From an uncultured Nitrososphaerota archaeon (GTDB lineage Archaea > Asgardarchaeota > Njordarchaeia > Njordarchaeales > Panguiarchaeaceae): a stretch of DNA of 34,105 bases. The stretch covers positions 1 to 34,105 of the forward strand of contig CAZWPQ010000024.1 in NCBI GenBank assembly GCA_964636085.1, read 5' to 3'. The notes below the pieces were generated by a model. The model ran no database searches. It was not told the origin of the DNA and saw nothing but the letters and a program-made list of their open reading frames with translations. This document shows positions 1,948 to 33,396 of this stretch, piece after piece. The position numbers were made by a program, and so were the translations under genes. Every line of letters begins with the position of its first letter. Position 1 is the stretch's first letter.

Positions 1948-2041
1948 GCCGGGGTTCACGAGCTAGGTACGTGGCCTGCCTGGAGCATACCAGATAGCAG
2001 GTGGCGGTTCCGCCTCGCGGGTTCAAGTCCCGCCCCCGGCA
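1948..2041 (+). tRNA. tRNA-Ser(GGA) with a 10-nt intron at 37/38 (1986-1995)
   Basis: Acceptor GCCGGGG/CCCCGGC; anticodon stem CCTGC/GCAGG; loop CT-GGA-G|intron|A; long variable arm GGCG-GTTC-CGCC; T-arm GCGGG-TTCAAGT-CCCGC. Confidence 0.9.
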
Positions 2042-2076
2042 CTATTTCTAACAAATTTGCGATGTAGGTGAAGTAA

Positions 2077-10627: not shown

Positions 10628-10712
10628 AGCCCGGGGCGGGATTTGAACCCGCGACCTCGGGATTACAAATCCCGCGCTTTTGCTATAATTCTAGCCGCTG
10701 AGCTACCCGGGC
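10628..10712 (-). tRNA. tRNA-Thr(TGT) with a 12-nt intron in the D-arm (22/23; 10679-10690)
   Basis: GCCCGGG/CCCGGGC with U73; anticodon arm CGGGA-TTTGTAA-TCCCG; removing AATTATAGCAAA restores GCTC-AGCGGCTA-GAGC. Confidence 0.88.
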
Positions 10713-10740: not shown

Positions 10741-10816
10741 TGGTGGCCCCGGCCGGGATCGAACCGGCGACCTTTCGGTTATCAGCCGAACGCGCTAACC
10801 ACTACGCTACGGGGCC
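10741..10816 (-). tRNA. tRNA-Ile(GAT), CCA encoded
   Basis: GGCCCCG/CGGGGCC-A-CCA; anticodon arm TTCGG-CTGATAA-CCGAA. Confidence 0.96.
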
Positions 10817-10970: not shown

Positions 10971-10989
10971 TAGTCTTACGGCTCGATAG

Positions 10990-11075
10990 TGGAGGGGGCG
11001 GGACTCGAACCCGCGGCCTCTGCCTTTCTTTGAATTAGATGCAAGGGCAGCGAGCTACCACTACTCTACCCCTCC
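10990..11075 (-). tRNA. tRNA-Ala(TGC) with a 14-nt intron at 37/38 (11026-11039) and atypical A3:U70
   Basis: GGAGGGG/CCCCTCC-A; CTGCC-CT-TGC-A|intron|A-GGCAG; variable loop AGGCC as in archaeal tRNA-Ala. Confidence 0.88.
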
Positions 11076-11088
11076 AGGGGGTATATCA

Positions 11089-11161
11089 TGGGCCGGGCGG
11101 GATTTGAACCCGCGACCTTCAGGTTAAAAGCCTGACGCTCTTCCAGCTGAGCTACCGGCCC
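11089..11161 (-). tRNA. tRNA-Lys(TTT)
   Basis: GGGCCGG/CCGGCCC-A; TCAGG-CTTTTAA-CCTGA; ends 13 nt upstream of tRNA-Ala. Confidence 0.96.
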
Positions 11162-11288
11162 TTCGGTGATTACTAATAGATATATCACAGTTATTCTATT
11201 ATGATTATGTTTTTAAAGGTTTTTATATCTTTTCAATAGTCCATAGTAGCTACAGAAATATTACTAGTAAGCTTGCTCGGGATGAAGT

Positions 11289-11726
11289 ATGAGTACAAAA
11301 AAATCTGGAAAGGAGATAAGGAAAACTACTCAAAGGGATCCATTAAAGATAGGAATAGCATACCTCTTCTGCCATAAGAATAACACCCTACTTACTATCA
11401 CCGATGCTACAGGTGCTGTCACCGTTGCACGTGCTGTTGGCGGAATGTTTGCAGAAACATCAAGGGACGAATCCACTCCATGGGTCGCCATGCTGGTAGG
11501 TCGCCACGCAGCTAGCAGGGCACTGGAGACTGGAATATCTAAAGTGATGGTAAAGCTCCGCGGGAGAGGCGGTAACAGATCTCCCAACATTAACTCTGCA
11601 TCAGCTGCCGCCGCAATAAAGGCAATTGCGAGATCAGGCCTCCAAATAATGAGCATCGATGATGTTACACCAATTCCACATGATTCAATAAGAAGACCAG
11701 GTGGCAGAAGAGGTAGGAGGGTGTAG
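11289..11726 (+). CDS. rps11: 30S ribosomal protein uS11
   Basis: NNTLLTITDATG...DVTPIPHDSIRRPGGRRGRRV. Confidence 0.95.
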   Translation: MSTKKSGKEIRKTTQRDPLKIGIAYLFCHKNNTLLTITDATGAVTVARAVGGMFAETSRDESTPWVAMLVGRHAASRALETGISKVMVKLRGRGGNRSPNINSASAAAAIKAIARSGLQIMSIDDVTPIPHDSIRRPGGRRGRRV

Positions 11727-33306: not shown

Positions 33307-33396
33307 GGCGCCGATGGAGTAGAGGTAGCTCGAGGGACTGTGGACACAACGGCAGCAATCCCTAGGTCGCGGGTTCAAGTCCCGCTCGGCGCCCCA
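33307..33396 (+). tRNA. tRNA-His(GTG) with encoded G-1, C73 and CCA, and a 14-nt intron at 37/38 (33344-33357)
   Basis: G-GCGCCGA/TCGGCGC-C-CCA; AGGGA-CT-GTG-G|intron|A-TCCCT; central helix CTGT/GCAG. Confidence 0.93.

Follow-up and report, generated by a model that had tools for sequence, protein, structure and literature searches.

The G3:U70 pair of tRNA-Ala is a textbook tRNA identity element in nearly all life, and the rule is thought to be universal outside mitochondria. The Asn and Asp residues with which alanyl-tRNA synthetase (AlaRS) reads this pair are more than 95% conserved (PMC6055181). In the A. fulgidus enzyme, N359A and D450A both leave the charging of wild-type tRNA-Ala unharmed, and substitutions of D450 allow a variant with a Watson-Crick 3:70 pair to be charged; because they spare the wild type yet admit the Watson-Crick variant, Asp450 acts by exclusion (PMC6055181). 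In human mitochondria, tRNA-Ala has G5:U68 and the mitochondrial AlaRS is independent of G3:U70 (PMC6451123); in Drosophila mitochondria, tRNA-Ala has G2:U71 (reviewed in PMC9976931).

The DNA analyzed here (the window, 34,105 nt) comes from a metagenome-assembled genome (MAG) of the Asgard order Njordarchaeales, labeled G000, with 2.41 Mb in 102 contigs and 83% completeness. It carries a tRNA-Ala(UGC) gene (Table 1) in which position 3:70 is A3 opposite U70, the expected G3.U70 determinant being absent. All seven acceptor-stem pairs are Watson-Crick and none is G:U; a translocated G:U of the mitochondrial type (2:71, 4:69, or 5:68) was looked for in this stem and not found. The alanine hallmarks A73, G1:C72, and G2:C71 are kept, CCA is not encoded, and the RF00005 score is 62.2 bits against a gathering score of 29, with model positions 1–71 of 71 covered. 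Direct reading of the sequence thus bears out two claims of an earlier, sequence-only reading of this DNA: that the gene combines A3:U70 with a fully Watson-Crick stem lacking any shifted G:U, and that its body is otherwise Ala-like, with A73, a high covariance-model score, and, once the intron is removed, a UGC anticodon.

Table 1. Positions in the window of the tRNA-Ala(UGC) gene, its parts, and the other members of its tRNA cluster.
Feature	Position	Strand	Details
tRNA-Ala(UGC) gene	10990..11075	-	86 nt; stem GGAGGGG/CCCCUCC; A73; Rfam RF00005 and sequence
5' exon, tRNA positions 1-37	11040..11075	-	A3 at 11073; anticodon UGC 11043-11041
5' acceptor strand, G1 G2 A3 G4 G5 G6 G7	11075-11069	-	G1 11075, G2 11074, A3 11073
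Intron, 14 nt, canonical 37/38 site	11026..11039	-	Relaxed bulge-helix-bulge; pairing by hand
3' exon, tRNA positions 38-73	10990..11025	-	U70 at 10993, A73 at 10990
3' acceptor strand, C66 C67 C68 C69 U70 C71 C72 A73	10997-10990	-	U70 10993, C71 10992, C72 10991
tRNA-Lys(UUU)	11089..11161	-	Rfam 78.4 bits; 13 nt upstream of tRNA-Ala(UGC)
tRNA-Ile(GAU)	10744..10816	-	Rfam 74.6 bits, ARAGORN; downstream cluster member
tRNA-Thr(UGU)	10628..10712	-	Rfam 60.8 bits, sequence; final cluster member

A canonical bulge-helix-bulge consists of a 4-bp central helix and two flanking 3-nt bulges that contain the splice sites. In the gene studied here, which owes its length to the intron in the anticodon loop, pairing by hand of positions 32–35 (CUUG) with the intron's AAAG gives three of the four central pairs (C32:G, U33:A, and U34:A), the last being a G35.A mismatch. 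The orthologous intron of G004 is 20 nt long, lies at the same site, and forms a perfect CUUG/CAAG helix (4/4). With the intron removed, the G000 gene has a 7-nt loop, CUUGCAA, with U33 and anticodon UGC, and its anticodon arm is as in the intronless tRNA-Ala(UGC) genes of G002 and G003, two species of the same genus; its 5' exon does not differ from the 5' part of these orthologues. Both ARAGORN labels for the gene, tRNA-Pyl(CUA) in the mode without introns and tRNA-Ser(UGA) in the intron mode, are artefacts of the intron and can be set aside: a long variable arm is lacking, and UGC is the anticodon of the orthologues that have no intron. Folded unspliced, the gene has a minimum-free-energy structure that is not a cloverleaf, and such a fold is uninformative for an intron-bearing precursor.

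The same-strand cluster runs in the order Lys-Ala-Ile-Thr. Its first two genes probably form one transcription unit, and a TATA-like, AT-rich stretch at about 11178–11186, some 17–25 nt upstream of tRNA-Lys(UUU), could conceivably be the promoter; a sigma-70 promoter and terminator scan of the window is inapplicable, the host being an archaeon. The tRNA-Thr(UGU) at 10628–10712 (-) has an intervening sequence of about 11–12 nt inside the D arm, a non-canonical intron position. Elsewhere in the window, a tRNA-Ser(GGA) at 1948–2042 (+), whose variable arm is long and whose anticodon is followed by an intron of about 10 nt, goes unreported by Rfam at the gathering threshold and is wrongly labeled Pro(UGG) by ARAGORN at default settings. 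A tRNA at 33308–33393 (+) has C73 and, minus a 14-nt intron at 37/38, the loop CUGUGGA with anticodon GUG; it looks like a tRNA-His, and not the Asp(GUC) named by ARAGORN.

The A3:U70 pair is not confined to one gene. The tRNA-Ala(CGC) on contig C1 of G000 and the tRNA-Ala(GGC) on C9 have acceptor stems identical to that of the UGC gene, and G3:U70 occurs in none of the 38 tRNA genes read out (of 39 Rfam matches). A:U at 3:70 is restricted to the three tRNA-Ala; all other tRNAs read have G:C or C:G there, and outside 3:70 of tRNA-Ala the acceptor stems of the genome are nearly all G:C. A73, G1:C72, and G2:C71 are also found in the tRNAs for Lys, Val, Phe, Arg, and Pro, so of the first three pairs just 3:70 distinguishes tRNA-Ala. 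Two weak tRNA matches in the genome are one of 70 nt with a mismatched acceptor stem (G000:C6:14109-14178, 33.6 bits) and one interrupted by an N run (G000:C6:65404-65476). The genome also has a tRNA with anticodon CCG (G000:C9:14968-15042).

Three DNA metagenomes (hydrothermal vent, sediment) are the sequencing runs that match the locus, with no RNA runs listed. Logan contigs of one of the hydrothermal-vent runs, X1, cover 10989–11528 of the window with no differences, which is weak support because X1 is probably the source sample. The sequence-only reading had named two findings that would overturn it, a G3 in the reads, or a second, canonical tRNA-Ala(UGC) with the present copy uncharged. 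No G3 appears in the Logan contigs (contig-level data, probably from the source sample), and no such second gene was found in the 83%-complete genome.

Fourteen Njordarchaeales genomes were searched with a pattern for intronless tRNA-Ala genes with any 3:70 pair. It returned 26 genes in 12 of the 14 genomes: 19 with A3:U70, one with U3:A70, six with G3:U70, and none with G:C or C:G. As stems are otherwise nearly all G:C, the absence of strong pairs from all 26 indicates a constraint that keeps the 3:70 pair weak. G3:U70 is found in two genomes, G007 (family f4) and G013 (family f3), and in each of them all three isoacceptors have it. The other 12 of the 14 genomes have A3:U70, which is also the state of the intron-bearing tRNA-Ala of G000, G002, G003, and G004 and of two metagenome contigs. 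The other isoacceptors and the related genomes, where the sequence-only reading had proposed to look, thus both carry the trait, the latter in 11 genomes besides G000.

The single U3:A70 gene is a tRNA-Ala(CGC) at G008:C114:961-1033, with stem GGUCGGG/CCCGACC. It is the sole CGC gene found in that genome, adjoins alaS, as do its orthologues in G009, G012, and G013, and represents a compensatory double change relative to the A3:U70 of the genome's UGC gene. In family f3 generally (G009:C1, G012:C173, G008:C114, G013:C39, L110, and L111) the tRNA-Ala(CGC) gene lies 170–260 nt from the alaS start, or about 1.1 kb in G013, in divergent or tandem arrangement; coupled regulation of the two is possible.

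A census of the phylum compared the A3:U70 pattern in 400 Asgard genomes with an identical pattern for G3:U70 as control. The control matched 270 of the 400 but none of the 5 genomes of f1 (G000 and four relatives), not the single genome of f2, and one of the 7 of f3; within the order it found no match in 12 of 14 genomes. Genuine A3:U70 matches are confined to Njordarchaeales families f1–f3 and one genome of another Asgard family, G111; matches in G186, G210, G322, G370, and G395 were not counted, their 5' ends being unpaired with the 3' strand. G111 has A3:U70 in tRNA-Ala genes for GGC and CGC (C322:2905-2978 and C455:1054-1127), and its AlaRS (L105) has the motif FYTNYG, where its family sister G110 has LYDSHG and G3:U70 tRNA-Ala. 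It is a probable second, independent case of A3:U70, and the Asn-Tyr that follows the changed residue in both G111 and G000 looks convergent. The bin is 80% complete and 6% contaminated, and also contains two G3:U70 tRNA-Ala genes of very different sequence, which may be contaminants.

G000 has one AlaRS gene, on contig C10 at about 53.7–55.5 kb, with a frame-shifting 10-N scaffold gap (L033 1402-1489). The apparent split into ORFs of 576 and 305 aa is an artefact of this gap, the frames being contiguous against the G003 protein; in relatives the open frames are 811–987 aa. The protein has the PF01411 catalytic and recognition part and the tRNA_SAD editing domain, and matches 3wqy_A with an E value of 1e-111. 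Pfam finds no DHHA1 (C-Ala) domain in the G003 AlaRS. Residues were mapped by alignment to A. fulgidus chain 2ztg_A, whose numbering we take to be that of 3WQY.

The equivalent of Asn359 is kept in all 32 aligned Asgard AlaRS, as IPAN or IPSN. The Asp450 equivalent, a site picked from PMC6055181 before looking, is Leu in G000, in the motif FYLNYG where A. fulgidus has LYDSHG. In 30 Asgard AlaRS it is L or I in 10 of 10 A3:U70 genomes and V, E, Q, R, or T in the 20 G3:U70 genomes, with V in both G3 genomes of the order (G013 and G007). Of the 892 columns that could be tested, it is one of only 7 in which A3 and G3 genomes have no residue in common. At the Arg345 equivalent, nine of the ten A3 genomes have Lys, and every G3 genome, G013 included, has Arg; at the Ser451 equivalent, most of the clade has Asn. 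Other changes are clade-wide and shared by G013: Ala for G363, a two-residue insertion just before the loop, and C-terminal losses, in which the Gln, Glu, and Gly-rich GGG motif at alignment columns 862, 901, and 1018 (G003 residues 759, 798, and 893), conserved in other Asgard AlaRS, are gone from f1–f3 including G013. In a scan of metagenomes by AlaRS alignment, 80 loci were found, of which only two have a Njordarchaeales-type AlaRS together with tRNA-Ala; on these two contigs an AlaRS with LYINFG adjoins an A3:U70 tRNA-Ala(CGC). A G013-like metagenome contig, L126, ends too near alaS to show a tRNA.

The correspondence between enzyme and tRNA has exceptions. A non-acidic residue (V, T, Q, or R) at the Asp450 site occurs with G3:U70 in G007, G017, G032, and the small f5 genomes G014, G025, and G035, and the Thr of G032 is the residue found in the A3 genome G111. 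Loss of the acidic residue predates the tRNA change and is more widespread, so it is at most permissive; on this distribution it is insufficient for that change. The L/I versus V contrast within the order amounts to just two independent changes, and since G005, an A3:U70 genome, keeps both Ser451 and Arg345, no single AlaRS motif fits every case. The sequence-only reading had pointed to the Asn359 and Asp450 equivalents as the residues to examine: the latter is indeed changed, to Leu, and the former is not. The idea that both were replaced is thus discarded, Asn being conserved everywhere and Asp lost in many G3:U70 Asgard lineages.

In an AlaRS gene tree (IQ-TREE quick search, rooted on two chosen outgroup genomes, G016 and G037), f1, f2, and f3 form one clade (support 100, starred), with G007 (G3) outside it; G013 (G3) is nested in f3 as sister to G006 and G010 (support 89–90, unstarred). 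With G007 outside and G013 nested, the fewest changes are a single G-to-A change on the stem of f1–f3 and one reversal in G013.

Taken together, tRNA-Ala(UGC) is probably a normal, working tRNA whose 3:70 pair has moved to A:U along with a co-evolved AlaRS that reads this weak pair. It would be co-transcribed with tRNA-Lys, its intron cut at the relaxed bulge-helix-bulge, and CCA added afterwards. Loss of Asp in an Asgard ancestor would have relaxed the exclusion of Watson-Crick pairs at 3:70; in Njordarchaeales the loop would then have been remodeled to carry a large hydrophobic residue, with the tRNA pair shifting to A:U. The enzyme would still read 3:70, by a new rule: it would accept A:U, U:A, and, in the revertant, G.U, and reject G:C or C:G, the pairs found at 3:70 in all the cell's other tRNAs. 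The reading element is likely the Mid2 loop, which in A. fulgidus AlaRS (Y-D450-S-H-G) lies in the 3:70 minor groove. Here the loop is Y-L-N-Y-G, and the large hydrophobic side chain in place of the Asp, which excludes Watson-Crick pairs, would suit a minor groove from which the guanine 2-amino group is absent. From the sequence comparisons we infer that this AlaRS charges A3:U70 tRNAs, that 3:70 still discriminates, and that it does so by a minor-groove mechanism. That the pair is still read is suggested by the lack of G:C or C:G among the 26 genes, by its being, of the first three acceptor pairs in G000, the sole one that separates tRNA-Ala from the tRNAs of five other isotypes, and by the U3:A70 variant, which presents the same minor-groove pattern. 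The reversal in G013, with its smaller Val, suggests that G.U is tolerated too. A stricter version, that the enzyme selects Watson-Crick A:U or U:A and no longer G.U, sensing either that the guanine 2-amino group is missing or that the pair is weak within a helix of otherwise all G:C pairs, is put forward tentatively, as slightly less probable than its opposite. Against the proposal count the abolition of alanylation by A3:U70 in model systems (PMC9976931) and the description of A. fulgidus recognition as shape-based and not by direct contacts (PMC6055181). A rewired AlaRS was among the explanations offered in the sequence-only reading, and it fits best, with A3:U70 in all isoacceptors and most of the order and co-variation at the Asp450 site; what does not fit is that Asn359 is unchanged and that the loss of Asp is older and wider.

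The other explanations differ in how much of the evidence they leave standing. An artefact or dead gene (misassembly, misbinning, a pseudogene, or a copy that is never charged), with the true G3:U70 gene in the unassembled 17%, might be suspected in a MAG that is 83% complete and in 102 contigs, and the mismatch in the intron's central helix counts in its favor; it is scarcely credible given a stem common to three isoacceptors on three contigs, the same state in 11 other genomes (separate species representatives) and two metagenome contigs, an empty G3 pattern in 12 of 14 genomes, agreement of the Logan contigs, and the high Rfam score. A specialised non-canonical tRNA, which the sequence-only reading had considered, is rejected: no other UGC isoacceptor was found, and the genes for CGC and GGC have the trait as well. 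The tRNAs might alternatively no longer be alanine tRNAs, being charged by another synthetase with GCN recoded. Nothing supports this directly, but a 2026 preprint (10.64898/2026.04.02.715157) proposes reassignment of CGG from Arg to Trp in two Njordarchaeales assemblies, so the code of the order may not be fully standard. Recoding of GCN is nonetheless exceedingly improbable: the tRNA body is otherwise as in the G3:U70 relatives G013 and G007, AlaRS is present and intact apart from the assembly gap, and G000 has GCN at all five AlaRS columns in which 18 or more of 20 other Asgard sequences have Ala. Two of the five are GCA, so that the earlier claim that this codon is not reassigned holds in a small test.

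We know of no enzyme that edits position 3 inside a helix. A post-transcriptional alteration of A3, for example deamination to inosine, would all the same give an I.U wobble that a classical shape-based AlaRS could read. Nearly all the genes keep U70, with which an I.U pair would bring back wobble geometry, and the AlaRS of archaea and eukaryotes is described as sensing shape more than atomic groups (PMC6055181). The U3:A70 tRNA-Ala(CGC) of G008, which keeps Watson-Crick pairing and makes a purine-3 wobble impossible, disfavors this option of the sequence-only reading; I.U substrates are moreover inactive with E. coli AlaRS (PMC6055181), and the change at the AlaRS reading site would be unnecessary. 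Editing is thus improbable. A serious alternative, though an unlikely one, is that identity has moved off 3:70, with AlaRS using the elbow via C-Ala, other acceptor pairs, or the anticodon, and that A:U drifted in. A:U, U:A, and G.U are all found at 3:70 within one genus-level group, and the C-Ala region lacks otherwise conserved residues clade-wide, including the Gly-rich GGG motif; human mitochondrial AlaRS is independent of G3:U70 (PMC6451123), and N. equitans AlaRS-alpha charges minihelices without G:U (PMC11392972). An unconstrained pair should, however, yield G:C or C:G in genomes whose acceptor stems are otherwise nearly all G:C, and none of the 26 genes has either. A:U is maintained across three families, in G000 no other pair among the first three tells tRNA-Ala from the tRNAs for Lys, Val, Phe, Arg, and Pro, and the residue at the site that reads 3:70 co-varies with the pair.

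If co-evolution of tRNA and AlaRS is the right explanation, the alanine rule seems to have been rewritten in this order. As far as could be found, no archaeal or Njordarchaeales tRNA-Ala without G3:U70 has been described, although the colon in "G3:U70" cannot be searched for and a paper may have been missed. A free-living archaeal order using A3:U70 would show that the rule can evolve in a complete cellular translation system. Along with A3:U70, the order has a variant with U3:A70 and a natural reversion, and elsewhere in the phylum there is a probable second origin. Closely related AlaRS with opposite tRNA states offer a natural experiment from which to learn how AlaRS discriminates at 3:70. 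The annotation of tRNAs is affected, since isotype models expect G3:U70, and there are bearings on the editing factors reported to use G3:U70 and on the search for orthogonal synthetase/tRNA pairs. Were the Watson-Crick-selecting version true, the switch would have occurred at least twice in Asgard archaea, with one reversion; AlaRS and tRNA-Ala would form a pair with natural orthogonality to every canonical alanine system, and the oldest rule of the "second genetic code" would have been rewritten in Njordarchaeales.

Compared with the canonical A. fulgidus-type system, the enzyme family, A73, G1:C72, G2:C71, and U70 are the same; the equivalent of Asn359 is conserved, as are Tyr and Gly in the loop Y-D-x-x-G. 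What differs is A3:U70 in place of G3.U70, in a stem without G:U, and, in the enzyme, Leu or Ile for Asp450, mostly Asn for Ser451, the two-residue insertion, Ala for G363, and loss of the C-Ala Gly-rich motif. Animal mitochondria likewise have natural alanine systems without G3:U70, but these are organellar and fast-evolving, often with a translocated G:U, whereas the Njordarchaeales system is the sole cytoplasmic one of free-living archaea, its stem being free of G:U and the original position a clean A:U. Nanoarchaeum equitans AlaRS-alpha is alike in being an archaeal fragment that alanylates helices with a Watson-Crick 3:70 pair, via A73 and the CCA end; this side activity of a single subunit is weak, however, and was seen in vitro, and the holoenzyme is specific for G3:U70 (PMC11392972), whereas in Njordarchaeales the tRNA genes themselves lack the G:U. 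In E. coli, tRNA-Ala stem variants without G3:U70 support growth of a tRNA-Ala knockout (a genetic selection, as cited in PMC9976931), so acceptance is possible in principle; these are laboratory mutants combined with a canonical AlaRS, and not, as in this order, a lineage-wide natural state with a changed enzyme.
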